This document shows, piece after piece, positions 966 through 64,000 of a stretch of 64,000 nt of DNA; the first letter of the stretch is position 1; every line of letters starts with the position of its first letter. The DNA comes from an uncultured bacterium. GTDB taxonomy: Bacteria; Verrucomicrobiota; Kiritimatiellia; RFP12; UBA1067. The position numbers and the translations under genes were made by a program. Under the pieces are notes generated by a model. That model did not search any database and was not told the DNA's origin. It worked only from the letters and a program-made list of their open reading frames with translations. The DNA is taken from positions 279 through 64,278 of the forward strand of contig CACZHC010000042.1 of assembly GCA_902780865.1 (NCBI GenBank). Direction: 5' to 3'.

Positions 966-3900
966 ATGAAAATCAAGACAATGTTGGCGATGGCGCTCGG
1001 CGCTCTGGCAGCGGGCTTTGCGGCGGCGGGAGATCTCGCGGTCTCCGCATACTGGCAGGACCACATGGTCCTCCAGCGAGGGAAGAACATCACCGTCTGG
1101 GGCAAGGACGCCCCGGGCCGCACCGTGACCGTGTCGTTCACCAACCAGACGGCTACCGCCACGACGGGCTCCGACGGATTCTGGGAGACGACGTTCGCGC
1201 AGCCGTTCGCGCTCTCGGCCACGCCGCAGGCGCTGACGATCACCGACAGCGCGAGCGAGTCCATAACGCTTTCGGACGTCCTCGTCGGCGACGTGTACCT
1301 CGCTGCCGGGCAGAGCAACATGGACCGCCGCCTGAAGGACAAGGACAAGGCCTTTGACGAGCCTCAGTCGACGACGACGGCATCCGCTTCCTCCGCATTG
1401 CGCGCAGCGCAGAGGACGCGACGGAGGAGAAGCTCTTCGACTTGCCCCCCATCAAGCCCGTCAACGACACGATCAAGTACTACGGCGAAGGATTCGACTG
1501 GGCTCCGGCGACGATGGGCGGGGCGGCAAGCAACAAGTACCACGTCAGCAGCGTCGCGCTCAACTTCGCCCACTACATCCGCAGGGCGAACGAGGAGAAG
1601 GGGCAGAACATCCCGATCGGCATCATCCATGCCTCGTCCGGCGGAACGTTCATCCGCGAGTGGATCGCCCCGTCGGTCCTCAACGATAACGGCATCTATT
1701 CCCCAGGCTCTGCGTCTTCCTCGGACGGCTGGTTCTGGAACAACATGATGGCCCCGATCCTCCGCGCGAAGATATGCGCCGTTCTTTGGTACCAGGGCTG
1801 CTCTGATTCCAGGCCGGATTGTGTGCCAGTATACAAGACGATGATGGATATCCTCGTGAGGGATCGCCGTGAGCGCTGGGGGGAGAACGGCGATTTGCCG
1901 TTCTATGCCGTGCAGATCGGCGCGCCCAACTACAATTCGGCCTCCGGCACGATTGGCCTTGATCAGTATCCGGCGCCGACCGAGGTCATAGCCGGAGAGA
2001 ACTACGCCACCATCCGCGAATGCCAGCGGCTCTGGAACATGACCGACACGGGCAGGCACGGCCTCGTCACCATCGTCGACTGCGTCGACTGCCTGAGCAA
2101 CGGGGCCCTTCATCCGGCCGACAAGAACTTCGTCGGGCGTCGCCTCTCTCTCCTCGCGCGCAGGGACATCTACGGCGAGACGGACCTTCCGGCGGAAGGG
2201 CCGACCTACACCCGTGCCGTGAGGGAGTTCGACGGGTCCGTCCGGATCTTCTTCAAGCCGGGCACGGCTAAGGGACTTACGGCGGGCCGCATGAAGCCGG
2301 CTACGGACATCACGGTGAGCCGTTGGATCAAGAAGGACACCGACCCGATCCGCGGCTTTGCGGTCTGCGGCGGCGACAGCGTCTGGAAGGACGCGGTCGC
2401 GACAGTCGACGGCGAAACAATCGTCCTGCGCGCGGACGGCGTCGCAACCCCGACGAAGTTCCACTACGGCTACTGGTGCGTTACCCGCGAGACCCTGCAG
2501 GAGGACGGCCAGCGCCTGAACCTCTACAACGACGCCGGGCTCCCGATGTCGCCCGTCGCGCCGCAGATGGTCGAGGACGCGGCAGCGTCGACGAAAGTAG
2601 TGGAACCCGTGATTGTGCCTGGCTCTTGCTTCTTCTCGCCGTCGACCAACGTGACGATCACCTGCGCGACTTCCGGCGCGACGATCCGCTACACGCTCGA
2701 CGGCAGCGAGCCGACCGCGTCGAGCACGGCCTACTCGGCGCCGATCCCGCTCACCGCGACGACGACGGTCAAGGCCCGCGCCTTCGCCGCGAACAAGGAT
2801 CCGAGCGACGTCGTCTTCGCGACATACACGCTTGGCGAGCCTCCGGCGGTGACGGCCGATCCTCAGTGGACCGTATCCTCCTACGACCCGTCCTTGTGGT
2901 CGAAGCTCTCTGGCAACATTCTCGCGGGGAAGACCGGCACGATTTCGGGCAGCGTCGCCTTCACGAGCAGCGGATACAACAACAATCCGGACAACCTGAC
3001 CGACGGTTCAGTGCCGTCCACGCCGGACAACTCCGCCTACGTCGGCTTCCAGGAGAACTCGTCCATCTACTGGACGTTCGACGAACCGCAGACGATCGAG
3101 GCGATCCGCTTCACGACGCAGCGGACCGCCGGTACTGACAGTGATGTGTCGAGGGCCTACGGCGGGCTCCACATCGAGGACGTCTACGTCCGGACGAGCG
3201 GCTCGTCGGAATGGGAGCCGCTGGGCACGCCGATCTACCAGAAGGGCGGGACGGTCGGCGGTTTCATGCTGGCTACCCTCGCGGATGACGGCGTCGGGAT
3301 TCTGGCCCAGAACGTCGTCGCCCTGAAGGTCGTATTCCTCCGGAGCGAATACTTCTGGTTCAACGTCGCGGAAGTTGAGGCGACCGGCTACGATTCGTCG
3401 GGCGGAACCGTCGGACCGGTCGATCCGATAACGCCTGTCGCGGGTTCGCTTGTCGTCGATACGACGATTTCCGACCACTGCGTCCTGCAGCGTGGAACGA
3501 ACAACTGCGTGAAGGGCACTGCGACCGTCGGCTCTACAGTCACGGTGACCTTCGGCGGAGTCTCGGCGTCGGCCGTCGCGGGGTCCGACGGAAGCTTCTC
3601 CGTCTCCATCAATCCCGGCGCCGCGAACGCCACGGGACGCGACCTCGTCGTCTCCGACACCGTCAACACGGTCACGATCACCGACGTCGTCGTGGGTGAC
3701 GTGTGGTACATTTCGGGACAGTCCAACGTCCGCTACACCGTCGATGCACTGGCGAAGTCCAAGGCTCTCGCGGACTGCGACTATCCGAGCCTCCGCATGA
3801 TGATGCTTCCGTCCGCGAACCCGGGACTCATCTCGGCGTCCGATGCGGAACTTCCCTGCGCATGGTCCGTCTGCTCGGCGACGACATGCACTAACATGTC

Positions 3901-6619
3901 CGCCACCGGATTCTTCTTCGGACGTGAATTGGTCAAGGCCGAGAACGTCCCCGTCGGCGTCGTGGTGGCGGCGATCAACGGATCCTACATCGCGAACTGG
4001 CTGCCGAACGCCAGCTGCGACAATTACATGGCCTCGCGCGCGAACCACATCGCGTTGAAGGGCGCGGTCTGGTATCAGGGCGAGTCCGATGCCTTGAACT
4101 ACAGCGACCGTAGCTATCCGAACAGGCTCAAGTCCCTCGTCCGGCACTTGCGCACGCGCCCCGGCAACGAAGGCCTGCCGGTCGTGGTGGTGCAGCTCCC
4201 GCGCTACCGCGACACATACATCAACTGCGGCAACCAGGCCGCGATCAACTGCTGGGGAATCTTCCGCGTCGACCAGGACCTCGCCGCCGCCGACATGGAC
4301 GGCGTCGTCTGCGTGCCGACGATCGAGTACGGCGCGGAATACAACATCCATCCGTCCGACAAGGACCTAATGGGCGCGCGCATAGCGCTCGCGGCCCGCA
4401 ACCTCGCGTACGGCGAGAACGTCGCCTACCGCTGCCCCTATCCGACTAGCGTGGAGAAGAACGAGGCCGGCACGACGGTCACGGTGACGTTCCCAGAAAC
4501 GACGACGCTCGTGGCCACCAACGATACGGCTTCCGTCCTCTTCGGAGAGGACCGGGAGATGTTCTCCGTCAGCGGAGCGAACGTAATGCCGGCAATCTCC
4601 GCCGACGGACATTCCCTCGTCTTCACCGGATCCTTCGCGGACGCCACGAGCGTCGAGTACGGCATCTGCGGATATCCGAAGATCCTCTTCGTGGACGCCA
4701 ACGGATTCCCCATGCCGCCGTTCAGCCTGGAACTCACCGGTGGTGGCAGTGGCGGCGAGCCAGTCGAAACGGCCGCGACACCGACCTTCAGCCCCGCCGC
4801 CTGCAGCTTCTATCCCACGACCAACGTGGCGCTCTCCTGCGCGACGTCCGGCGCGACGATCCGCTACACGCTCGACGGCAGCGATCCAACCGCAGAGAGC
4901 GCTATCTACACTGCTCCGATCGCTCTTTCCACCACGACGACGGTGAAGGCTCGCGCCTTTGCGGGCGGGATGAACGCGAGCGCCGTCGCATCCGCGACAT
5001 ATACACTGACAGAGCCCGTCGATCCGCCGGATCCGCCTCCGTCTGGCGACAAGATGTTCTACGTCGACGGGACGGGGTACGACAGCTGGGCGGCTGCGAT
5101 GAATGCGGCATCTGCCGGCGGCACTGTTTATCTCGGCGCGGATGCGGAAATTTCCGGCACCCAGCTGAAGTCGCTCACGATCGATCTCTGCGGGCATACG
5201 CTGACGGCGAGCAGCTCGGCTAGTCCTTATATCGGCGGCGTCGCCATTACCGTGATCGACAGCTCCGGCAATGGTATGTTCACGGCGCCCAATGGAATGA
5301 ATCTCCAGGGAACCATCGATCTCTCGGCTTTAACCCACGATCAGTTCTCCATTGCCGGCAACCGGTTTTGGACTGGCTCAGGCACTGTCGCGAAATTCCC
5401 CGCAGGCTGGACTCTTGACGAGTGCAAGGCCACGTTCAGGAATTCGGTCGCAGGTGCGAAGATCGTCGTGCAGGGCGTCACATACACTTGGGATGGATCG
5501 AACTGGGTGTCTGATGACCCTGGCCATGCCATTACGATCACGGCGCCTCAGAACGGCACGCTCGAGACGTCTGTGACGAACAATGTTGCGGCGGGAACGA
5601 CTGTGACTGTAACCGCGACCCCGGCGTCGGGATATCAGCTCGTATCGGTGACTACGAATGGCGCGGCGCTTGCGGGCAATTCGTTCACGATGCCCTCCGC
5701 GAATGTGACGGTTGCGGCGACGTTCGAAGAAGTGGAACTTCCGCCGGATCCGCCTCCGTCGGGCGACCATGCGTTCTACATAGGCGAGACGGGCTACGAC
5801 AGCTGGATGGACGTCTATGCCGCGGCGAAGGCCGGCGATACGATTGTCGTTGGTGTAAACGCCGAGATCAGACAGTCGTCCGGGACGTTCAGCAAGTCCG
5901 TCACGATCGATCTCCACGGACATGAGCTGAACTTCATACAGGGATGGCTGACAGGCTGCAGCGTCGACGTTGTCGACACGGGCGCACCGGCCGGACAGTT
6001 TGTGGTTTCGGCCTACTCGATGAATGTCGGCGGCGGCACTCTCGACCTTTCCTCCCTGGCCAGCGGCCAGGTGACCGGAAGGTTCCAGATGTCCGCTACA
6101 ACGCTTCTGTCGTTTCCCAGCGACCGCCCGCTTGCGGACTGCACGTCCGCCATCAATATTAAGGCGGAAGGCTCGCGTATCGTGGTTCAAGGCGTTACAT
6201 ACACCTGGGATGGAACGAACTGGGTGCCCGAGGGCAAAAGCTATCCGGAGTGGATCGATTCGACGAGCCAGACGCTTACGGACAAGTACGACGCGTGGGC
6301 GGCGAAGTTCAACGTCGCCGATCCGACGGCGGCCCAGAAGGACGCGTATCTCCTGAACTGCGCGAACACGGCGGAGGCCGTCGCCGCGGCGAAGGCTTCG
6401 TTCACGGTTACCTCCATTGCGGTCAATGCGGACGGCACGGTGGATGTCGGGCTTCCGGCCGCCCCGGAAGGCGGATTCAACGGAACGGTCACGATCCTCG
6501 GCTGCGAGACGGTTGATGGCGAATATCACGCCATGACGACGGGCAATCTCCTTGATGCCTTGTACCGCATCCCCGCGACATCGAACGTCCATTTCTTCAA
6601 GGCGTCGCTGGATATGTGA
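966..6619 (+). pseudogene. giant secreted multidomain carbohydrate esterase (2x SASA/sialate-O-acetylesterase-like), interrupted by a frameshift at 1358-1385
   Basis: SD plus ATG at 966, signal peptide MKIKTMLAMALGALAAGFAAAG. GQSNM at 1308 and GQSNV at 3716 (SGNH/SASA-type esterase motif). Two near-duplicate SGATIRYTLDGS(E/D)PT..TTTVKARAFA domains (~2620-2830, ~4785-5010). Discoidin-like domain ending AEVEATG (~2860-3390). PASGYQLVSV..VTVAATF B-repeat (~5525-5735). Two copies of an unassigned ~160-aa module (5024-5510, 5741-6226). The start is in the frame of ORF 696..1748 and the remainder in the frame of ORF 1442..6619. Confidence 0.75.
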
Positions 6620-6665
6620 GGCAACCACGAAACACACGAAGCACACGAATAGCTAAGATAACGAT

Positions 6666-6702
6666 TTGGACGGTTGCGCGGCAGAGCCGCGCAACCGTCC
6701 AA
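6666..6702 (+). terminator. intrinsic terminator hairpin (16-bp perfect stem, 5-nt loop)
   Basis: ttggacggttgcgcgg cagag ccgcgcaaccgtccaa, 47 nt after the stop at 6619. Paralogous hairpin at 7643-7679. Confidence 0.7.
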
Positions 6703-6710
6703 CTATTTCA

Positions 6711-6726
6711 CCCTCCAGTTGGAGGG
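6711..6726. promoter_or_regulatory. palindrome CCCTCCAGTTGGAGGG (copy 2)
   Basis: Identical to 877-892 and 7688-7703. Confidence 0.55.
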
Positions 6727-6748
6727 GTTTTCAACGGCGGGGGGCTGA

Positions 6749-6756
6749 TGTATAAT
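6749..6756 (+). promoter_or_regulatory. -10 box TGTATAAT
   Basis: Conserved position relative to the palindrome. Followed by SD aaggag and the ATG at 6820. Confidence 0.45.
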
Positions 6757-6819
6757 TTTGGCAAATAATTTACAGCCCAAAAAGCGATTATTTCAAGCAC
6801 TAAAAAAGGAGTGATTAAA

Positions 6820-7605
6820 ATGAGTAAAAAAATCGTACGTTCCTTGTTGGTCGCAATCGCGAGCGTCTTGGCCCTAGGCCTTCGCGCAGACCCGGAACCG
6901 ATGTTCTATGTCGGCGATACGGGTTACGACACCTGGATGGGCGCATACACCAACGTTGATGCCGGCGGCACGATCTTGGTCGGTGAGAATGCCGCTCTTG
7001 AGCAGACGAATGGGGAAAATGTGGGGGTTATCGGCAAGTCCGTCACGATAGATCTTAACGGACGCAATCTGCGCTACGTCAAAGGATGGCTGACTGGCTG
7101 CACCGTCAAAATTGTCGATACTGGCATGCCGAGCGTGACTGGTCGGTTCGAAATAGCGTCTGGCAGAATGAACATGTCCGGCGGCACGTTGGACCTTTCG
7201 GCTCTTTCCGGCAGTCAAGTCAATGGGAACTTCCAGATGTCCTCCACGTCGCTCTTGAAGTTTCCCAGCGACATGGACCTCGACCAGTGCACAACTCGCA
7301 TCGTGATCGATTCGGTAGACCAGCAGACGCCCAAGGGGAAGGGTGCGCGCATCGTGGTGAAAGGCGTCACGTACGTCTTTGACGGAACGAGCTGGGGCGT
7401 AGCGTTCAAGATCACGAGCATCTCCGTGTTTGACGAGGTGGTCGAGTTCGGTGTGATGGTCCCGGCAGACGGCGAGGTTACGATCCTCGGCAGTGAGTTT
7501 GTCAGCGGCACGTATAACGCGCTGACGACAACTAAGATCAGCGATGGTCTGTATCAAGTTCCGGTGTCGAACGCGCGGTTCTTCAAGGCGGCGATGGAGT
7601 TGTGA
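6820..7605 (+). CDS. secreted protein: one copy of the unassigned R module plus shared C-terminal domain
   Basis: AGGAG 8 nt before the ATG at 6820 (ORF track starts at GTG 6811). Signal peptide MSKKIVRSLLVAIASVLALG. Residues align along their length with residues encoded at 5741-6616 of the giant gene (FY.G.TGYD.WM, KSVTIDL.G, GWLTGC, GGGTLDLS, IVV.GVTY..DGT.W, FFKA). Confidence 0.8.
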   Translation: MSKKIVRSLLVAIASVLALGLRADPEPMFYVGDTGYDTWMGAYTNVDAGGTILVGENAALEQTNGENVGVIGKSVTIDLNGRNLRYVKGWLTGCTVKIVDTGMPSVTGRFEIASGRMNMSGGTLDLSALSGSQVNGNFQMSSTSLLKFPSDMDLDQCTTRIVIDSVDQQTPKGKGARIVVKGVTYVFDGTSWGVAFKITSISVFDEVVEFGVMVPADGEVTILGSEFVSGTYNALTTTKISDGLYQVPVSNARFFKAAMEL

Positions 7606-7642
7606 GGTAACCACGAAATACACGAAAAGCTAAGATAACAAG

Positions 7643-7679
7643 TTGGACGGTTGCGTAGCAGGGTTGCGCAACCGTCCAA
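7643..7679 (+). terminator. intrinsic terminator hairpin (13-bp stem)
   Basis: ttggacggttgcg..cgcaaccgtccaa; paralogue of 6666-6702. Confidence 0.65.
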
Positions 7680-7687
7680 ATCGTATA

Positions 7688-7703
7688 CCCTCCAGTTGGA
7701 GGG
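7688..7703. promoter_or_regulatory. palindrome CCCTCCAGTTGGAGGG (copy 3)
   Basis: Identical 16-mer. Confidence 0.55.
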
Positions 7704-7726
7704 GTTTTCAGTGGTGGGGGTGTGGA

Positions 7727-7734
7727 TGTATAAT
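7727..7734 (+). promoter_or_regulatory. -10 box TGTATAAT
   Basis: Same spacing to the palindrome. SD aaaggag before the ATG at 7794. Confidence 0.45.
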
Positions 7735-7793
7735 CTAAGCGAACAAACAACACGAACTCTACACTGTCATGCCTAGATAAAGGAGTGATAAAA

Positions 7794-16405: not shown

Positions 16406-18493
16406 ATGAATCTGAAAATGATTTTGCTGCACGTAAGCGTTCTGCTCGCCTGTTCTGTTGGAGCGGTTCAGTTTGACGCCGCCGAGCCGATCTGGACGAC
16501 GGCGGAGAAGGGCGAGGTCAACTCGTCCGTCGCCTTCACGACGCATTTCGAGTGGGACGGTAGGGCGCCGCTCAAGCTGCGGCTGGCGGGCTGTTCAATC
16601 TTCAAGGTGTTCGTGAATGGCGAGTTTGCCGCGTATGGTCCGGCGCGCGGCCCCCACGGATGGTTCCGGATGGACGAGTGGAACCTTTCCCGCGTCGCGC
16701 GCAAGGGCGACAACCGGCTCAGCATCGTGGGCGTCGCCTACAATACGACGACCTACTACATCGTCGAGCACGAGCCGTTTCTGCAGGCCGAGGTGCTGTC
16801 TGGTGGAAAGGTCGTGCGGGCCACGGGCGACGGGAAGTGGGGCGCCAACTTCACGGAGCGCGTCCGCAAGACCCAGCGCTACAGTCTCCAGCGCGCGCAG
16901 AGCGAAGTCTACGAAGTGCCGCGGCACGACCATTGGGAATGGTGGAAGCGCGACGGGCTTAAGGGCAAGTCTCTCATCATCACAAATGCGCCGTCGGTGA
17001 AGCTTCTCGAACGCGGGGCACCTTATCCGAAGTTTAAAATTGACGGCACCTATCGTCCGACAGACGTTCTCGCCGTCAGTCTGCAAACTGGCAATCTTGG
17101 CGAGGCGCCGCATCTCTGGGACAAGAAGGGGAGCTTTCTTGGACGCACTTATCAGACCGCTGAGTTGAAGTACACCCCGTCGGTCGATTGGTGGAAGCGG
17201 ACGATCGAGTCGAAGGCGAAATTCGAAGGCGGGGCGGCGAGGGTCGATGCGTCGCGCGGCGTCCGCTACGAGGGCGCGATAAACGACACTGGTTTTCTTC
17301 GCCTCAAGGTGAAGGTAACGAAGCCAGGGCGCTTGCTCGTCGGGTTTGACGAGATTCTCGTCGATGGCAAGCTCGATTTTCTAAAACGATTCGGATGCAA
17401 CAACATTGTTCTATGGGATGTTAAGGAGCCGGGCGAGTACGATTTCGAGTCGTTCGAGCCCTACACCTTCAAGTTCGCCGAGGTGATCATGCTGGAGCTG
17501 AAGGATCCGGCGGACCGCAAGATATTCGAGGCCGCGCGCGAGACTTTTGCGCAGAATGCGGTCGACGTGTTTACGGATTGCCCGAGTCGCGAGCGCGCTG
17601 GCTGGCTTTGCGACAGCTACTTCACTGGGCCTGCCGAGCATTTCTTTACGGGGAAGAACGAAATCGAGCGCACGTTCCTTCGAAACTTCGCGCTTGCCGA
17701 GAGGTTCCCGCATCTTCCCGATGGGATGGTGCCGATGTGTTATCCTGGGGACCACATCAACAAGACCTTCATTCCGAACTGGTCGATGTGGTTCATTCTC
17801 GAGCTTGCAAACTATTTCGAGCGTACGGGCGATCGTGAAACCGTCGATCTGCTTCGTCCTCGCGTAGAGGGACTTCTTAAATTCTATTTGCAGTTCTTGA
17901 ACGCGGATGGCGCGCTTGAGAACCTGCCGGGATGGGTGTTCGTGGAATGGAGCCACGCGAACGACACGAAGCTCGTCAAGGACGGTGTGAACTGGCCGTC
18001 GAACATGACGTACGCGGATGTCCTCTCGAAGGCGGCGCGGCTTTACGGACGTCCCGAACTCGCAGAGCAGTCAAAGAAGCTGAAGTCGCTCATCCGCGAA
18101 CGTGCGTACGACGGCGTATGGTTCCGTGACAACGCGAAGCATCCCGACGTTACGGAGACGTGCCAGTACTATGCGTTCTTCCACGGTATCGCGACGCCGA
18201 AGACGCATCCCGAGCTGTGGCGGCGGATTACGGACGAGTTCGGCCCCGAGCGCAAGGCGAAGGGGCTCTACAAGGAAGTCTGGCCGTCGAACGCCTTCAT
18301 CGGGAACCTGATGCGACTCATCGTCCTTAAGCGCGAGGGCCGCGACGCGCAGGTTTCGCGTGAGATACGCGGCTACTATCTCAAGATGGCGGAGACGACT
18401 GGAACGCTGTGGGAGCACGACCGTCCCGAGGCGAGCTGCAACCACGCATTCGCTTCATACTTAGCAATTCTCCTTGACGAGACGAACAAATAG
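16406..18493 (+). CDS. alpha-L-rhamnosidase-like six-hairpin glycosidase (GH78-like)
   Basis: Signal peptide MNLKMILLHVSVLLACSVGA. DCPSRERAGW motif resembles the DCPxR(D)ERxGW signature of the GH78 catalytic domain. Confidence 0.7.
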   Translation: MNLKMILLHVSVLLACSVGAVQFDAAEPIWTTAEKGEVNSSVAFTTHFEWDGRAPLKLRLAGCSIFKVFVNGEFAAYGPARGPHGWFRMDEWNLSRVARKGDNRLSIVGVAYNTTTYYIVEHEPFLQAEVLSGGKVVRATGDGKWGANFTERVRKTQRYSLQRAQSEVYEVPRHDHWEWWKRDGLKGKSLIITNAPSVKLLERGAPYPKFKIDGTYRPTDVLAVSLQTGNLGEAPHLWDKKGSFLGRTYQTAELKYTPSVDWWKRTIESKAKFEGGAARVDASRGVRYEGAINDTGFLRLKVKVTKPGRLLVGFDEILVDGKLDFLKRFGCNNIVLWDVKEPGEYDFESFEPYTFKFAEVIMLELKDPADRKIFEAARETFAQNAVDVFTDCPSRERAGWLCDSYFTGPAEHFFTGKNEIERTFLRNFALAERFPHLPDGMVPMCYPGDHINKTFIPNWSMWFILELANYFERTGDRETVDLLRPRVEGLLKFYLQFLNADGALENLPGWVFVEWSHANDTKLVKDGVNWPSNMTYADVLSKAARLYGRPELAEQSKKLKSLIRERAYDGVWFRDNAKHPDVTETCQYYAFFHGIATPKTHPELWRRITDEFGPERKAKGLYKEVWPSNAFIGNLMRLIVLKREGRDAQVSREIRGYYLKMAETTGTLWEHDRPEASCNHAFASYLAILLDETNK

Positions 18494-18504
18494 CCAGGAG
18501 AGGG

Positions 18505-18774
18505 AACTCCGAGCGTTAGGGCTCCCGCTACCGCTCCGCTGCTTCGCGATGTCTCAACGGTGATTCCGTGCGTTGAATTGTCTTTTGGGCTGCCTTCGGC
18601 AGGCTTTGAAGGCATAGTAACCATTCCGTCACGGCAATGAGGAGGTCTGGAGGACACGTCCTCCAGCTTTAAGACGATCTGTATCATTCAGCGAGACACG
18701 AATGATGGGCGCGAAGCAAATGAGATTCTGCGGAGCGGTAGCGAGAGACCTGCTGATCGGAGTTGAAAATCGGC
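18505..18774. repeat. 270-nt rod-like repeat element (copy A): MITE-like or structured ncRNA
   Basis: The first 119 nt are repeated at 63882-64000 (about 85 percent identity by eye, first 35 nt identical). Termini pair over about 45 nt: 18505-18512/18767-18774, 18521-18539/18730-18749, 18540-18548/18710-18718. Internal hairpins at 18590-18602 and 18647-18666. Confidence 0.7.
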
Positions 18775-18861
18775 GCCTTTTGGCGAGTGTCAGATCTGTG
18801 GAAGTTAAAAATGGATAAACACCAGACCGAACTGTGGCTTGTCCTCGTTGGTGTGTAAATA

Positions 18862-18870
18862 TGGTATACT
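18862..18870 (+). promoter_or_regulatory. extended -10 box TGGTATACT
   Basis: Followed by a ~30-nt leader with SD aaaggag before the ATG at 18906. Confidence 0.45.
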
Positions 18871-18905
18871 ATGTCCACAACTGAAACCTGAAAGGAGATT
18901 CAAAG

Positions 18906-20207
18906 ATGGCGAAGAGAGTGATGCTCATTGGCGCTGGCGGAGTTGCCGGAGTTGCGGCGGCGAAGATGGCCCAGAACCCTGACGTGTTCGGCGAGATCCT
19001 TATCGCCTCGCGCACGCAGTCGCGTTGCGACGCCATCAAGGCGGACATTGACCGTCGCGCGGCCGAAGGAAAGGGCGCGTGGGCAAAGGCGACTACGGCT
19101 CCTGCGAAGATCACGACTGCGCAGATTGACGCGATGGATACGCCGCGTCTCGTCGCGATGATCCGCGAGTTCAAGCCCGACCTCGTCATGAACATCGCGC
19201 TTCCCTATCAGGATCTCGCGATCATGGACGCGTGTCTCGCGGCTGGCGTGAGCTACCTGGACACCGCCAACTACGAGCCGCCGGACGAGGCGCACTTCGA
19301 GTACTCCTGGCAGTGGGCGTACCGCGAGAAGTTTGAGAAGGCGGGACTTACCGCTATCCTCGGTTGCGGTTTCGACCCTGGCGTAACGCAGGTGTTCTCG
19401 GCCTACGCGCAGAAGCACTACTTCGACACTATCGAGACGCTCGACATTCTCGACTGCAACGGCGGCGATCACGGGTATCCTTTCGCGACGAACTTTAACC
19501 CCGAGATCAACATTCGCGAAGTCGCCGCGAAGGGCAGCTACTGGGTAGCCGATCCTAAGGACGACAAGCCCGAGGTCGCCGTCGAGAACAAGAAGGCATT
19601 CGACAAGGGCTATTGGGTCGAGACCGCGCCTATGGCTATCAAGCGCGAGTATGTCTTTGACCAGGTTGGCAAGAAGGACATGTACCTTCTCCACCACGAG
19701 GAGCTCGAGTCGCTCGGCTGCAACTTGAAGGGCATCAAGCGAATCCGCTTCTTCATGACTTTCGGGCAGAGCTACCTCACTCACCTCAAGTGCCTTGAAA
19801 ACGTCGGGCTTACGCGCATCGACCCGATTGACTTCAAGGGCCAGAAGATCGTTCCTATCGAGTTCTTGAAAGCGCTTCTTCCCGACCCCGCGTCGCTTGG
19901 CCCCCGCACGAAGGGCAAGACGAACATCGGCTGCATCTTCCATGGGTTCAAGGACGGCAAGCCGGTCGACTACTACGTGTACAACGTGTGCGACCATCAG
20001 GAGTGCTACGCCGAGGTTGGCTCGCAGGCGATCAGCTACACGACGGGTGTCCCCGCGATGATCGGCGCCAAGATGTTCCTCGAGGGCAAGTGGACGACTA
20101 AGGGCGTCCACACATGCGAGGAGTTCGATCCCGATCCGTTCATGGCCGAGCTCAACGTTCAGGGTCTTCCGTGGCAGGAGACGTTCGATCCCGTCAAGGT
20201 TCCTTGA
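18906..20207 (+). CDS. carboxynorspermidine synthase/dehydrogenase (saccharopine dehydrogenase family)
   Basis: MLIGAGGVAGV Rossmann start. Length and adjacency to nspC fit the alternative spermidine/norspermidine pathway. Confidence 0.85.
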   Translation: MAKRVMLIGAGGVAGVAAAKMAQNPDVFGEILIASRTQSRCDAIKADIDRRAAEGKGAWAKATTAPAKITTAQIDAMDTPRLVAMIREFKPDLVMNIALPYQDLAIMDACLAAGVSYLDTANYEPPDEAHFEYSWQWAYREKFEKAGLTAILGCGFDPGVTQVFSAYAQKHYFDTIETLDILDCNGGDHGYPFATNFNPEINIREVAAKGSYWVADPKDDKPEVAVENKKAFDKGYWVETAPMAIKREYVFDQVGKKDMYLLHHEELESLGCNLKGIKRIRFFMTFGQSYLTHLKCLENVGLTRIDPIDFKGQKIVPIEFLKALLPDPASLGPRTKGKTNIGCIFHGFKDGKPVDYYVYNVCDHQECYAEVGSQAISYTTGVPAMIGAKMFLEGKWTTKGVHTCEEFDPDPFMAELNVQGLPWQETFDPVKVP

Positions 20208-21346: not shown

Positions 21347-21371
21347 TATCCAACAACTGACGCCGTATTTT

Positions 21372-51088: not shown

Positions 51089-51967
51089 ATGAAGCTTTCA
51101 GGTACGATTACAGCCCTTATAACGCCGTTCTCTGGCGACGGCTCGGTTGACTATGGGGCGTTGCGCTCTTTGGTTGAGCGCCAGACACAGGCCGGCATCG
51201 AGGGCATCTGCTCCGTCGGCACGAGCGGAGAGTCGCCGACTCTCTCGCACGAGGAACACCACAAGGTCATCGAGAAGACGATCGAATTTGCCGCGGGGAA
51301 GTGCAAGATCATCGCCGGCACGGGCGCCAACTCCACATCCGAGGCCGTGTCTCTCACAAAGGCCGCGATAGCGGCTGGCGGCGCGGACGCATGCCTTCAG
51401 GTGACGCCATACTACAACAAGCCGAACCCAGAAGGGCTTTACCGCCACTTCATGACGGTCGCCGACCTCGGGCTTCCCGTCGTCCTCTACAACGTGCCTG
51501 GCCGCACCGGACGCGAGATACCGCTCGACGTCGTCGTGCGCCTCGCGAAGCATCCCAACATCGTCGCGATCAAGGAGGCCGCGGGCTCTGTCGAGAGGGT
51601 GAGCGCCATCAAGAATCGGCTTCCCGACTTCACCGTCCTCTCCGGCGACGATTCGCTCGCGCTCCCGATGGCCTCGGTCGGCGCGGAAGGCGTAATCTCC
51701 GTCGCGTCGAACGTCATCCCGAAGGAGATGGGCGACATGATCCGCCTCGCGCTCGCCGGCGACTTCGTTGGCGCCCGTGCGATTCACGCGAAATTCTATC
51801 CGCTCTTCCACGACCTCTTCATCGACGTAAATCCCGTCATGGTCAAGGAGGCGCTTTGGCTCATGGGCATCATTGAGCGCGCGTTCCGTCTACCTCTCTG
51901 CGAGACCGACGACGCAAAGCTCGCGCAGCTCAAGTCGACCCTGTCGGCCTTAAAGTTAATTGGCTGA
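51089..51967 (+). CDS. dapA: 4-hydroxy-tetrahydrodipicolinate synthase
   Basis: MKLSGTITALITPF..GTSGESPTLSHEEH..YNKP. The 162-codon upstream part of ORF 50603 is antisense to the flippase and Arg/Ser-rich. Confidence 0.95.
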   Translation: MKLSGTITALITPFSGDGSVDYGALRSLVERQTQAGIEGICSVGTSGESPTLSHEEHHKVIEKTIEFAAGKCKIIAGTGANSTSEAVSLTKAAIAAGGADACLQVTPYYNKPNPEGLYRHFMTVADLGLPVVLYNVPGRTGREIPLDVVVRLAKHPNIVAIKEAAGSVERVSAIKNRLPDFTVLSGDDSLALPMASVGAEGVISVASNVIPKEMGDMIRLALAGDFVGARAIHAKFYPLFHDLFIDVNPVMVKEALWLMGIIERAFRLPLCETDDAKLAQLKSTLSALKLIG

Positions 51968-52029
51968 CCCCTGACTCCTGACTCCTGACTCCTGGCCCCT
52001 AACCCCTGACTCCTGCCCCCTGACCCCTA
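51968..52029 (+). repeat. C-rich, G-poor degenerate CCTGACT heptamer array filling the dapA-ispF spacer
   Basis: cccctgactcctgactcctgactcctggcccctaacccctgactcctgccccctgaccccta. The reverse complement motif recurs inside hrpB (60106-60131, 60197-60225). Confidence 0.8.
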
Positions 52030-58814: not shown

Positions 58815-61436
58815 ATGGCGTTCCCAGTTGAAGAGAGGATCGGCGAGATTCGCCGCGCGCTCGCGGCGAACAGGGATGTTGTCCTCACCGCGCCTCCCGG
58901 GAGCGGCAAGACTACTTGCGTGCCGCCCGCGCTTCTTGACGAGCCGTGGATTAAGGGAAAGAAAATCGTCATGCTCGAGCCGCGGCGGCTTGCCGCGCGC
59001 AATTGCGCGGCATACATTGCGCGTAGACGCGGCGAGGCGGTTGGAGGCACCGTCGGTTACCAGGTGCGGCTTGAGCGCAAGATTTCCGCGGCGACTCGGC
59101 TTGAGATCGTGACGGAAGGGCTGCTTACACAGCGGCTTCTTTCAGACCCGGAGCTTTCGGATGTCGGGCTTGTGATCTTCGATGAATTCCACGAGCGCTC
59201 GCTCCCCTGCGATACGGCGTTTGCGCTCGCGCTCGAAGTGCGGCGCGCGCTTCGGCCGGATCTTCGCATCCTTGTCATGTCCGCGACGCTCGACGCCGAT
59301 GAGGTCGCCGCGCATCTCGGAGACGCCGACATCATTCGCGCCGAGGGGCGCATGTTCCCCGTCGAGACGAACTACTTGGGCGACATGTCGATGACGGCCG
59401 CTATCTCGAAGGCGCTCAAAGAGACAGACGGCGACATTCTCTGCTTCCTTCCTGGCGAGGGAGAGATTAGGCGAGTGCAGGACACGGTAGGGACGTCTTT
59501 CCAAGACGTCCGCGGGCGCCTGGGGACAGGCGCCCCTACCAATGTCGATATAGATGTCCTACCGCTTTACGGCAGTCTCCCCAAGGAGGAGCAGGACAGG
59601 GTGTTCGAGCGCGGCGGACGGCGCAAGGTAATTCTCGCGACGTCGATCGCCGAGACTTCGGTTACGATCGAGGGTATTTCGACTGTGATCGACTCGGGGC
59701 TTATGCGCGTGCCGAGGTTTCGCCCAGCGTCCGGCATGTCGGGGCTTGTCACGCTTCCGCTGACGCAGGACCGCGCAGAACAGCGCAGAGGCCGCGCCGG
59801 GCGCGTTCGCGCAGGCGTATGCTATCGCCTCTGGAGCGAGGGGGAGCAGCAGTCGCGTCCGAAGAAGATGATGCCCGAGATTCTTGACGCCGATCTCTGT
59901 TCGCTCGTTCTGACAAGCGCGGCGTGGGGTGCGCTTGGGCGCGAGGATCTGCCGTGGATGACACCGCCACCTGCGTCGAACTGGGATCAGGCGGTAGGGC
60001 TTCTTAAGATGCTTGGTGCGCTTGACGGCGATGGGCGTCTCACGAAGAAGGGTGAGGCGATGGCGAAGCTCCCGATGCATCCGAGGTTGGCGAATATGAT
60101 TATATGGGTCAGGGGTCAGGAGTCAGGAGTCGTAACCGCCCCTTGCGGGTGGGCGCGACCCTTGGGGAAGCGACCGAGCCGAGCGGAGCGAGTGCCGAGG
60201 AGTCAGGAGGTAGGAGTCAGGGGGGATGTGGCTTCGCTGCTGGCGGCGATTGTAGAAGAGGGGAACAGAAGCCGCGAGACGGACATCAGGAAGATTGCCG
60301 AGGAGATAAGAGAGACGCCGAACAGACCGTTTTCGAAAAGGGTGCTGCAGTTGGCGCGGAAGTTTAAAAAAGGGTCAGACCCCTCTGACACAGTAGCTGA
60401 TACAGCTAAAGCTGCAATCAGCTACTGCAGTCAGAAAGGTCTGACCCTAGAAGGCTCTCTTCTTGCGCTTGCGTATCCTGACAGGGTTGCGAAGAACCGA
60501 GGGAATGGAACATTCCGCATGGTGTCTGGGCGCGGCGCATTTGTCGACGAAACCGATCCTCTCGCGAAGTCGCCGTACCTCGTCTGCTGTGAACTCGATG
60601 ATCGCCCGGGCGATGCGAAGGTCTTTCTTGGCTGTCCCATTGGCGAGGACGAGATCGAAGACCTTTTCGGCGATCGCATTGTCGAGGAACCGTACTGCGC
60701 ATGGGACAGGCAGAACGACCGCGTGAAGAGCGTCGTTCGCCGCAAGCTTGGGGAGATGACTCTTGGGGAGAAGCCGCTCGTTGCTTCGTCGCACAACGCG
60801 CATCTTCAGGACGGCGTCGATGCAGAAATTGCGACGGCGCTTCTCGAAGGCATCCGCCAGAAGGGAGTCGAGAATCTGCCCTGTTGGACGAAGGAGTCGC
60901 GCCAATTTCGCGCAAGAATGACGTTTTTATCGCGTATTAATGGGGGTGAGTGGCCTAATCCGACCGATGAGGCGATTCTTGCCGCATTGCCTGGTTTCAT
61001 CGGCGGGATGACGAAGTGGAAGGATTTGGAGCGGCTTGACCTCTTTTCGGTCTTTGACTTTATGCTCGCGGAAGCGGGGCATGATAGGCGCGAGCTCGAT
61101 CGTCTTGCGCCTACGCGCATGGAGGTTCCGAGCGGCAGCCACATGCTTATCCACTACGAGGGTGACGAGCCGACGTGTGAGGTTCGTCTTCAGGAATGTT
61201 TCGGGCTTATGGAGACGCCGAAGGTCGCTGGCGGAAAGGTGCCCGTCGTGATGACGCTTCTTTCGCCTGCACAGAGGCCGATACAGATAACGAAAGACCT
61301 TGCTGGCTTCTGGCGCGAAGGGTATCAGCTCGTCCGCAAGGATATGCGCGGACGCTATCCGAAGCACTATTGGCCGGAAGACCCGTTCACCGCCGTCGCG
61401 ACACGTCGCACCGTCAAACGTGCTGGGCAGACCTGA
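58815..61436 (+). CDS. hrpB: ATP-dependent RNA helicase HrpB (DEAH box) carrying two in-frame repeat insertions
   Basis: TAPPGSGKTT, DEFHER, SATL, TSIAETS, QRRGRAGR motifs and C-terminal RYPKHYWPEDP. Confidence 0.92.
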   Translation: MAFPVEERIGEIRRALAANRDVVLTAPPGSGKTTCVPPALLDEPWIKGKKIVMLEPRRLAARNCAAYIARRRGEAVGGTVGYQVRLERKISAATRLEIVTEGLLTQRLLSDPELSDVGLVIFDEFHERSLPCDTAFALALEVRRALRPDLRILVMSATLDADEVAAHLGDADIIRAEGRMFPVETNYLGDMSMTAAISKALKETDGDILCFLPGEGEIRRVQDTVGTSFQDVRGRLGTGAPTNVDIDVLPLYGSLPKEEQDRVFERGGRRKVILATSIAETSVTIEGISTVIDSGLMRVPRFRPASGMSGLVTLPLTQDRAEQRRGRAGRVRAGVCYRLWSEGEQQSRPKKMMPEILDADLCSLVLTSAAWGALGREDLPWMTPPPASNWDQAVGLLKMLGALDGDGRLTKKGEAMAKLPMHPRLANMIIWVRGQESGVVTAPCGWARPLGKRPSRAERVPRSQEVGVRGDVASLLAAIVEEGNRSRETDIRKIAEEIRETPNRPFSKRVLQLARKFKKGSDPSDTVADTAKAAISYCSQKGLTLEGSLLALAYPDRVAKNRGNGTFRMVSGRGAFVDETDPLAKSPYLVCCELDDRPGDAKVFLGCPIGEDEIEDLFGDRIVEEPYCAWDRQNDRVKSVVRRKLGEMTLGEKPLVASSHNAHLQDGVDAEIATALLEGIRQKGVENLPCWTKESRQFRARMTFLSRINGGEWPNPTDEAILAALPGFIGGMTKWKDLERLDLFSVFDFMLAEAGHDRRELDRLAPTRMEVPSGSHMLIHYEGDEPTCEVRLQECFGLMETPKVAGGKVPVVMTLLSPAQRPIQITKDLAGFWREGYQLVRKDMRGRYPKHYWPEDPFTAVATRRTVKRAGQT
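59491..59535. repeat. 45-nt double perfect hairpin inside hrpB (in frame, 15 codons)
   Basis: ggacgtctt tcc aagacgtcc gc gggcgcct ggggac aggcgccc. Confidence 0.75.
60104..60225. repeat. ~120-nt in-frame insertion inside hrpB, bounded by GGAGTCA heptamer arrays
   Basis: gggtcaggggtcaggagtcaggagtc ... gaggagtcaggaggtaggagtcaggggg. Encodes WVRGQESGVVTAPCGWARPLGKRPSRAERVPRSQEVGVRG between the conserved HPRLANMI and AAIVEE segments. Confidence 0.7.
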
Positions 61437-63810: not shown

Positions 63811-63881
63811 TAAATACCGCCGCCTTAATGATAGCTCCACCGCCAACTTCGCCGCGCCGCCCGATGAATAAAGGAAGAAGA

Positions 63882-64000
63882 AACTCCGAGCGTTAGGGCT
63901 CCCGCTACCGCTCCGCAGCTTCGCTATGTCCCAACGGCAATTCAGTGCGTCGAATTGTCTTCTTGAGCTGCCTTCGGCAGGGTTGGAAGACATGACAACC
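63882..64000. repeat. copy B (5' part, truncated by window end) of the 270-nt element
   Basis: Aligns without gaps to 18505-18623. First 35 nt identical; the gctgccttcggcagg hairpin is conserved. Confidence 0.7.

Follow-up and report, generated by a model that had tools for sequence, protein, structure and literature searches.

The gap between the rhamnosidase gene and the downstream polyamine gene in the window, i.e., the whole 64-kb stretch of DNA that was analysed, is occupied by a rod at positions 18505–18764 (plus strand), a 260-bp long imperfect palindrome with internal hairpins, which on balance probably belongs, as a non-coding and MITE-like form, to a family of palindrome-bracketed elements in the DNA of gut and rumen Kiritimatiellia. 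At full length such an element would measure ~650 bp, and two inverted arms of ~45 nt would enclose one gene with its own promoter, encoding a GxxExxY PD-(D/E)XK nuclease of ~130 aa. The nuclease may recognise the arms, either as duplex DNA or as an extruded hairpin or cruciform, and gene-less rods would persist and spread at the DNA level, relying on nuclease made by a gene-carrying copy at another place in the genome. The route would be break-and-repair or recombination and not DDE transposition, which is disfavoured because there is no target duplication.

The rod begins with AACTCCGAGCGTTAGGGCTCCCGCTACCGCTCCGC and ends with GCGGAGCGGTAGCGAGAGACCTGCTGATCGGAGTT in the window, and its extent from AACTCCGA to TCGGAGTT is defined by the fold, by the pairing of the arms and by alignment to copies with unrelated flanks, where the likeness starts and stops exactly at 18505 and 18764. 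The first-pass annotation had described a paired rod with two complementary ends, and these are present: 18505–18539 pairs with 18730–18764, with 83% complementarity over the 35 nt of the rod arms. The terminal tcggagtt had been placed at 18767 and is found at 18757–18764, so that the unit stops at 18764 and the earlier 3′ end at 18774 was 10 nt too long. The 5′ arm (18505–18550, plus strand) includes the near-invariant core GCTCCCGCTACCGCTCCGC, which is invariant in the alignments, and is recovered by an nhmmer arm profile with an E-value of 6e-13; the 3′ arm (18718–18764, plus strand) is an inverted copy of the 5′ arm, running from GCGGAGCGGTAGCGAGAG to TCGGAGTT, and is recovered on the minus strand with an E-value of 2.7e-13. 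All hairpins named earlier are present, including ctggaggacacgtcctccag (18647–18666) and ctgccttcggcag (18590–18602, plus strand), the latter with a C(UUCG)G-type loop, seen in 13 of 13 aligned W-type rods and with equivalents in the other families. The 296-nt stretch that was folded has a predicted folding energy of −133.3 kcal/mol on the plus strand (z −5.5 relative to dinucleotide shuffles) and −119.3 kcal/mol on the minus strand (z −6.5), values that none of 200 shuffles matched for either strand. The gap around the rod measures 412 nt (18494–18905), exactly as first reported, and the rhamnosidase stop codon lies 11 nt upstream of the rod.

Three arms, making up two rod copies, are detected in the 64-kb window by the nhmmer arm profile, and no others. 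The second W-type copy, recognised by sequence match to the window rod at 63882–64000 (plus strand), is cut by the window end; the 5′ part of the rod recurs at 63876–63993 with 88% identity over 118 nt, close to the ~85% estimated earlier for a copy at 63882. The full second copy is found at L001 9849–9590 (minus strand; source contig ENA ERZ28614175 scaffold_99), with metK on one side and a HydG-like radical-SAM gene on the other. Another locus, L011, was rejected as an orthologue of this copy, as tblastn found no window flanking genes there, and the left flank that is shared must accordingly belong to the element.

The likeness between the two window copies runs ~60 nt past the 3′ arm, to 18825, and comparison with two other loci, L100 and L098, identifies 18765–18825 (plus strand) as the right side of a shell common to other W-type copies. 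Some of these lie inside a larger asymmetric shell of ~440 bp (L100 150–580; L098 5627–6057) with outer inverted repeats CTGGAGTTTACCCATTTTTT, whose two sides measure 126 nt and 81 nt. In L100 a perfect 8-bp duplication, CAGGCGGA, brackets the shell, and in L098 the duplication is GGACATGA, with an offset of one base; having outer terminal inverted repeats and 8-bp duplications, the shell is therefore a classical MITE carrying a rod. Both window copies have the 81-nt shell side only (18765–18825 in the first copy, where the left shell is missing), with a diverged outer inverted-repeat motif, aaaaatggataaacaccag, as its terminus at 18807–18825. The 81-nt shell end abuts a host promoter in L100, in L098 and in both window copies.

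The first-pass annotation knew of the two window copies and allowed that there might be no others; at least 114 stretches in at least 37 assemblies were found, among the matches listed, when species-representative genomes were scanned with one 20-nt arm pattern, CTCYCGCTACCGCTCCGCWG. Nearly all the matches listed are in metagenome-assembled genomes (MAGs) labelled Kiritimatiellia, 'Verrucomicrobia' or Lentisphaerae, or in unlabelled rumen or gut MAGs, the richest of which holds at least 23 arms, and the few single matches in other phyla are either at chance level or on short, probably mis-binned contigs. The organism of the window is itself placed among the Kiritimatiellae by a named protein with 98% identity. 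From the matches listed, 66 complete units were extracted, with rods of 160–280 bp that belong to families S (~160 bp), T (~220 bp, range 210–280 bp) and W (~260 bp) and to a small fourth group, family counts that derive from short and possibly mis-binned MAG contigs and take in related, non-independent copies. All families have the same arm layout, AACTCCGA(T) followed by ~7 family-specific bases and GCTCYCGCTACCGCTCCGC(AG), with the mirror image at the other end, and hardly any variation is seen in the arms of 24 S and 13 W copies, which come from many species. The interiors differ between families and contain small hairpins, one of which has the loop C(UUCG)G or C(UUUG)G. Where the flanks are unrelated, the likeness between copies extends precisely from AACTCCGA to TCGGAGTT, and near-identical S rods occur at unrelated sites in one MAG. 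Multiple copies and a near-invariant arm sequence are established for the family. Tandem arrays of rods, repeating every ~260 nt, are also present, as in L009 3393–4388, where four units directly adjoin a gene-carrying element, and in L028, L039 and L086.

Elements of ~650 bp with the same arms as the rods enclose one ORF of ~130 aa, which matches PF13366 (PDDEXK_3) with an E-value of 1e-31 and TIGR04256 ('GxxExxY protein') with an E-value of 4e-34. At the level of sequence, the arms are linked to this gene by two independent routes, arm-first and protein-first. In loci selected by their arms, 7 of 7 full and 6 of 6 fragmentary GxxExxY copies (≥70% amino-acid identity) lie at most 170 nt from an arm, and all four homologues picked by protein similarity alone are bracketed by AACTCCGA arms. 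One of these four is a clean gene-carrying element of 645 bp at L127 2339–2984, in a contig of 355 kb. A promoter of the TGGTATAAT type belongs to the gene itself. Some MAGs, e.g., RUG14632, UBA1629 and LOHA06_bin.047, contain both a rod type and the gene type that matches it. Hundreds of database homologues at ≥67% identity are found mostly on contigs of ~1 kb, as expected of repeats that break assemblies.

No GxxExxY gene is present within the 64-kb window, and the window rod is a W-type copy without gene that is collinear with both ends of a gene-carrying element. Positions 2–126 of its reverse complement match L093 1–125 (88.8%) and positions 122–234 match L093 640–752 (86%), leaving one gap of 514 bp, a stretch that in L093 holds the promoter and the ORF. 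The corresponding junction in the window is at 18639–18643, where alignment to L093 places the ~514-bp cassette of gene-carrying relatives, containing the promoter, the GxxExxY ORF and part of the 3′ region. The adjoining hairpin GAGGAGGT-CTGGAGGA..TCCTCCAG (18641–18666, plus strand), assigned by alignment to gene-carrying relatives (L127 2438–2480), has its counterpart there immediately 5′ of the nuclease TGGTATAAT promoter, on the opposite strand. Collinearity alone would fit loss of the gene from the rods as well as its insertion into them.

A different arrangement is seen at four loci (L103 4254–5058; L046 7107–7630, in mirror image; L061; L096), where the GxxExxY ORF of one element has a further rod nested in it, in place of approximately codons 24–86, a composite that recurs in three MAGs. 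The ORF fragments in these loci were considered as simple deletion intermediates, an interpretation that was dropped in view of the nested rod. An S-type gene-carrying element occupies the same place in a T3SS operon in four MAGs (L136 1280–2055; L137 1395–2030; L008 2272–2905; L110 1400–2249), after the YscJ/SctJ gene and with its ORF co-oriented with the operon, and an additional complete rod is present in two of the four.

The nuclease is under purifying selection, with a dN/dS of 0.05–0.15, and looks functional judging from this value, from the invariance of Glu29, Asp69 and the Glu80-x-Lys82 pair in 30 homologues and from an AF2 model with a PD-(D/E)XK fold (pLDDT 94.8). Its nearest Foldseek neighbours are PD-(D/E)XK nucleases of a generic kind, Cas4 SSO0001, RecE, the AddAB nuclease and tRNA-splicing endonuclease, all of them weak at E-values of 2e-3 or worse. 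Searches of PADLOC and PHROGs and a PDB sequence search gave no match to the nuclease; a search for phage association gave a single match in 2.9 million viral contigs, and phage records contained no GxxExxY matches. A survey from 2012 lists the function of the family as unknown and reports multiple transfers (PMC3424549), and a literature search on GxxExxY/PF13366 and on Kiritimatiellae repeats returned nothing relevant.

Copies are found in new contexts with junctions at AACTCCGA, as illustrated by an identical gene-carrying element that has two different left flanks in L127 and L131, with the junction exactly at AACTCCGA. The flanks are A/T-rich and mirror-symmetric, and a check for target-site duplications, which the first-pass annotation had proposed, detected none at the rod ends: the length distribution of direct repeats in 63 rods equals the shuffled null. 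Some elements are old and hold conserved positions across species, with intact arms and diverged interiors (L099/L111 and the T3SS-operon element of the four MAGs), which could reflect host-level function or gene conversion and not mobility.

For the window copies, no contig with an identical downstream protein has an empty site, and all keep the 412-nt spacer; BLAST of the flanks against the loci likewise returned orthologous pairs and no empty site. Orthologues of the downstream gene with 86–91% identity lie in another gene order, and therefore the window copy marks a synteny break, not a simple insertion. In the related species represented by L134 and L135, the downstream gene is part of a polyamine operon with a 19-nt spacer. 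In L133–L135 (~3400–3500) this gene, of the saccharopine-dehydrogenase family (carboxynorspermidine synthase-like), comes after the agmatinase gene, and in the window (18829–18905) it stands apart, immediately behind the repeat, and is served by a TGGTATACT promoter of its own. Most probably the window copy is a passenger that sits where a rearrangement has joined the rhamnosidase gene to the relocated polyamine gene, and a putative effect on neighbouring transcripts, with the stem as processing site or barrier, would be secondary.

The extended −10-like promoter of the downstream gene, TATGGTATACT at 18860–18870 (plus strand), lies outside the repeat and matches the window TTTGGTATAAT family; it is not called by a simple sigma-70 scan, and a promoter and terminator scan of 18300–19000 reported no sites. 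A recurrent ATTTTTGGTATAAT motif at window positions 21367, 28038, 45109, 54208 and 58769 is probably the extended −10 promoter consensus of the organism, sites of a kind that a generic sigma-70 scan misses. Elsewhere in the window, runs of CTGACTCC/CTGACCCC-like units are found at 51964–52028, 60103–60131 and 60191–60223, with inverted partners ~8 kb away, and a repeated module, a ACCCTCCAGTTGGAGGGGTTT hairpin followed by TGTATAAT, occurs at 876–924, 6710–6758 and 7687–7735, and in 2600–7700, together with several paralogous gene segments. The latter has the look of related genes arranged in tandem, every member of the family having a terminator and a promoter to itself.

The main rival to the proposed relationship holds that the rods are an independent host repeat, either REP/ERIC-like or spread within the shell MITE, that as a multi-copy conserved target is repeatedly invaded by a separate, selfish gene of the homing-endonuclease kind, the window rod being an uninvaded target. 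We consider this possible but rather unlikely. It would fit the observation that the ORF keeps one relative place and one orientation throughout the S-, T- and W-type units, as well as the presence of distant GxxExxY genes in other phyla as single extra ORFs wedged between housekeeping genes (fabD/fabG, radA). Moreover, rods draw other insertions, i.e., IS110-family elements in the arms and a DDE insertion sequence inside a rod, and W rods are found inside a shell with its own terminal inverted repeats and 8-bp duplications; however, most rods have no shell. The cassette boundary, furthermore, is not conserved across families: the promoter and the 3′ region of the GxxExxY gene differ from family to family and run collinear with the rods. 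GxxExxY protein similarity follows the rod family, so that rods and genes diverge in parallel, and with saturated dS the protein tree gives no sign of recent horizontal sweeps between families. Distant GxxExxY genes, finally, have their own bracketing inverted repeats, which suggests that the repeats belong to the element of the gene. Taken together, the lack of a conserved cassette boundary, the parallel divergence and the distant homologues with their own repeats make the rod as a gene-less form of the nuclease element the best-supported reading of these comparisons.

RNA-level roles of stems have been proposed for intervening sequences (IVS), REP/BIME, ERIC and Correia elements, and the rod might likewise act mainly as RNA, as a long stem in 3′ untranslated or intercistronic regions that serves as an RNase III cleavage site, a barrier to exonucleases or a transcription terminator, or as a free non-coding RNA. 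This is the weaker rival and, in our judgment, improbable, even though several observations are in line with it: the fold is very stable, hairpins have C(UUCG)G-type loops, and in the short family some interior stems vary with pairing kept, for which single-stranded DNA or a cruciform would be another explanation. Many rods lie 2–30 nt after a stop codon or 7–30 nt before a start codon and must therefore be co-transcribed with their neighbours. Where neighbouring genes are in tandem, sense rods outnumber antisense rods 25:10, and 4 of the 25 form one array, and the ratio of divergent to convergent contexts is 8:1, both counts being based on gene calls from a home-made codon model and including related, non-independent copies; the 25:10 bias is not predicted by purely selfish DNA. 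The gene-carrying form, too, is kept in the T3SS operon in four MAGs. Against an RNA role, Rfam searches of the window at the gathering threshold, of the region at E-values up to 10 and of six related loci gave nothing but a sub-threshold, chance-level JUMPstart match (14 bits, cut-off 35), in agreement with the initial view that no tRNA-like or known riboswitch core is recognisable. Double changes of any kind are confined to 3 of 66 pairs in the W family, with a positive covariation term (+0.74), and in the S family, with double changes in 3 of 40 pairs, the arms never covary. The arm core is identical between families while dS of the enclosed gene is saturated; the arm is thus constrained as sequence, which points to protein recognition. 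Sense and antisense strands win the fold comparison in 8:7 (W), 11:13 (S) and 18:1 (T) cases, and this strand asymmetry gives no consistent signal. Rods stand beside genes in both orientations, and the window rod was rejected as an intrinsic terminator, given that its 3′ flank, gaaaatcgg, has no U-tract and that 18300–19000 contains no terminator-like site. The structured non-coding RNA suggested in the first-pass annotation thus finds no backing in Rfam, in W-family covariation or in strand preference, as the strands fold alike in two of three families. The termini are conserved as sequence and not just in their pairing. A reading of the 412-nt gap as a riboswitch or new regulatory RNA is not supported and was set aside, the gap consisting of the repeat and a native-looking promoter. 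That the palindrome arose by chance or as an artefact of assembly has a negligible probability; the source is a metagenome assembly, but assemblies and samples that are independent of each other contain the identical sequence, the repeat is found at >100 loci from at least 37 assemblies, and its fold beats all shuffles.

Rods and arms also carry other insertions. IS110-family insertion sequences (DEDD_Tnp_IS110/Transposase_20, 363–413 aa) are located inside the conserved arm in L081 (~503–2150) and L128 (~520 onward), at different insertion points (GTAGCGAG^AGAGCC and GCGGAG^), and the arms seem to serve as IS110 targets, like REPs elsewhere. An identical DDE_Tnp_1 gene (438 aa) is present in the rod interior in two different MAGs (L069 186–1502; L084 2657–3973).

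In other phyla the GxxExxY gene is found on plasmids and chromids, as one additional ORF with housekeeping genes on either side. Three of nine distant genes are tightly bracketed by inverted repeats of 25–30 nt, with scores of 21, 19 and 16 compared with 5–12 for neighbouring genes, and the nine include one further weak case and one gene with a 21-nt direct repeat, a small sample that provides only a lead. The inverted repeats hug the genes in Bacteroides, Sphingomonas (fabD/fabG) and Bernardetia, and the copy with the 21-nt direct repeat is from Fusobacteria (L121 1413–1884; L123 1453–1889; L126 1436–1886; L141 1441–1900). We tentatively propose, as an idea that is somewhat doubtful at present, that GxxExxY proteins might be the nucleases of a new class of minimal selfish elements, consisting of a ~130-aa gene in inverted repeats without transposase or target-site duplication, from which the gene-less, REPIN-like rods of Kiritimatiellia would be derived and whose architecture would recur in other phyla. 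For the window alone the significance is modest, in that a 412-nt gap is accounted for by a repeat and a native-looking promoter. If the link between arms and nuclease is functional, it would assign a role to the widespread orphan family PF13366/TIGR04256, provide a nuclease-based counterpart to REPIN/RAYT and account for part of the poor assembly of Kiritimatiellia MAGs, in which the gene is mostly on ~1-kb contigs; the invariant arm offers a concrete substrate for biochemical tests.

Dispersed palindromic repeats have been described in bacteria, and to our knowledge the protein that mobilises them is mostly not known, REP/RAYT being the main exception. Bacterial MITEs and palindromic repeats such as Correia/NEMIS, ERIC/IRU, RUP and BOX are small and non-coding, with conserved inverted termini and modular interiors, and, like the rods, they lie near gene ends and have a strong predicted hairpin when transcribed. 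The rods differ from them in having no target-site duplication at their ends and no DDE-transposase parent, and in an arm sequence that is invariant across many species where synonymous sites are saturated. The novel MITE of the first-pass annotation therefore stands in part: the rod is short, non-coding and multi-copy, has conserved terminal inverted repeats, turns up at unrelated sites and shares its termini with longer relatives that carry a gene, but the duplication expected of a classical MITE is absent from the rod ends and the sole gene of those relatives encodes a PD-(D/E)XK nuclease and no known transposase. PD-(D/E)XK homing endonucleases, of which I-Ssp6803I is a free-standing or intron-borne example, share with the present family a small nuclease gene that exists alongside gene-less versions of the same site; here, however, the site is a dispersed palindromic repeat and not a single host gene, and there is no intron or intein.

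By analogy, the closest likeness in appearance is to the IVS of 23S rRNA, and the closest working likeness is to REPIN/RAYT. The IVS of Coxiella burnetii has 428 nt, a terminal stem of 28 bp and an internal S23p ORF, and is excised by RNase III (PMC4990558). Both systems place one small ORF inside a long stem made by terminal inverted repeats, both include forms whose ORF is decaying or missing, and both are viewed as selfish. The present elements are, however, intergenic or intercistronic, at many loci between protein genes; Rfam detects no rRNA in the window or the loci, and hence no helix 25/45 location in 23S rRNA, and the ORF encodes a PD-(D/E)XK nuclease under strong purifying selection, not the four-helix-bundle S23p. 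REPINs are REP doublets that form hairpins and are associated with the REP-associated tyrosine transposase, RAYT (Bertels & Rainey 2011, PMC3116915). As in that system, the rods are short extragenic units with two inverted conserved sequences around a variable spacer, present in many copies per genome that are sometimes clustered or in tandem, without target duplication; the repeat also flanks the gene dedicated to it, and IS110-family elements target the repeat. In contrast to REPIN/RAYT, the arm-flanked gene belongs to PF13366/TIGR04256 and encodes a 130-aa GxxExxY nuclease, not a RAYT, i.e., a Y1 (IS200/IS605-like) transposase; the arms, at ~45 nt, are not themselves palindromic REPs, the units measure 160–260 bp compared with ~70–110 bp, and the gene resides inside the hairpin unit.
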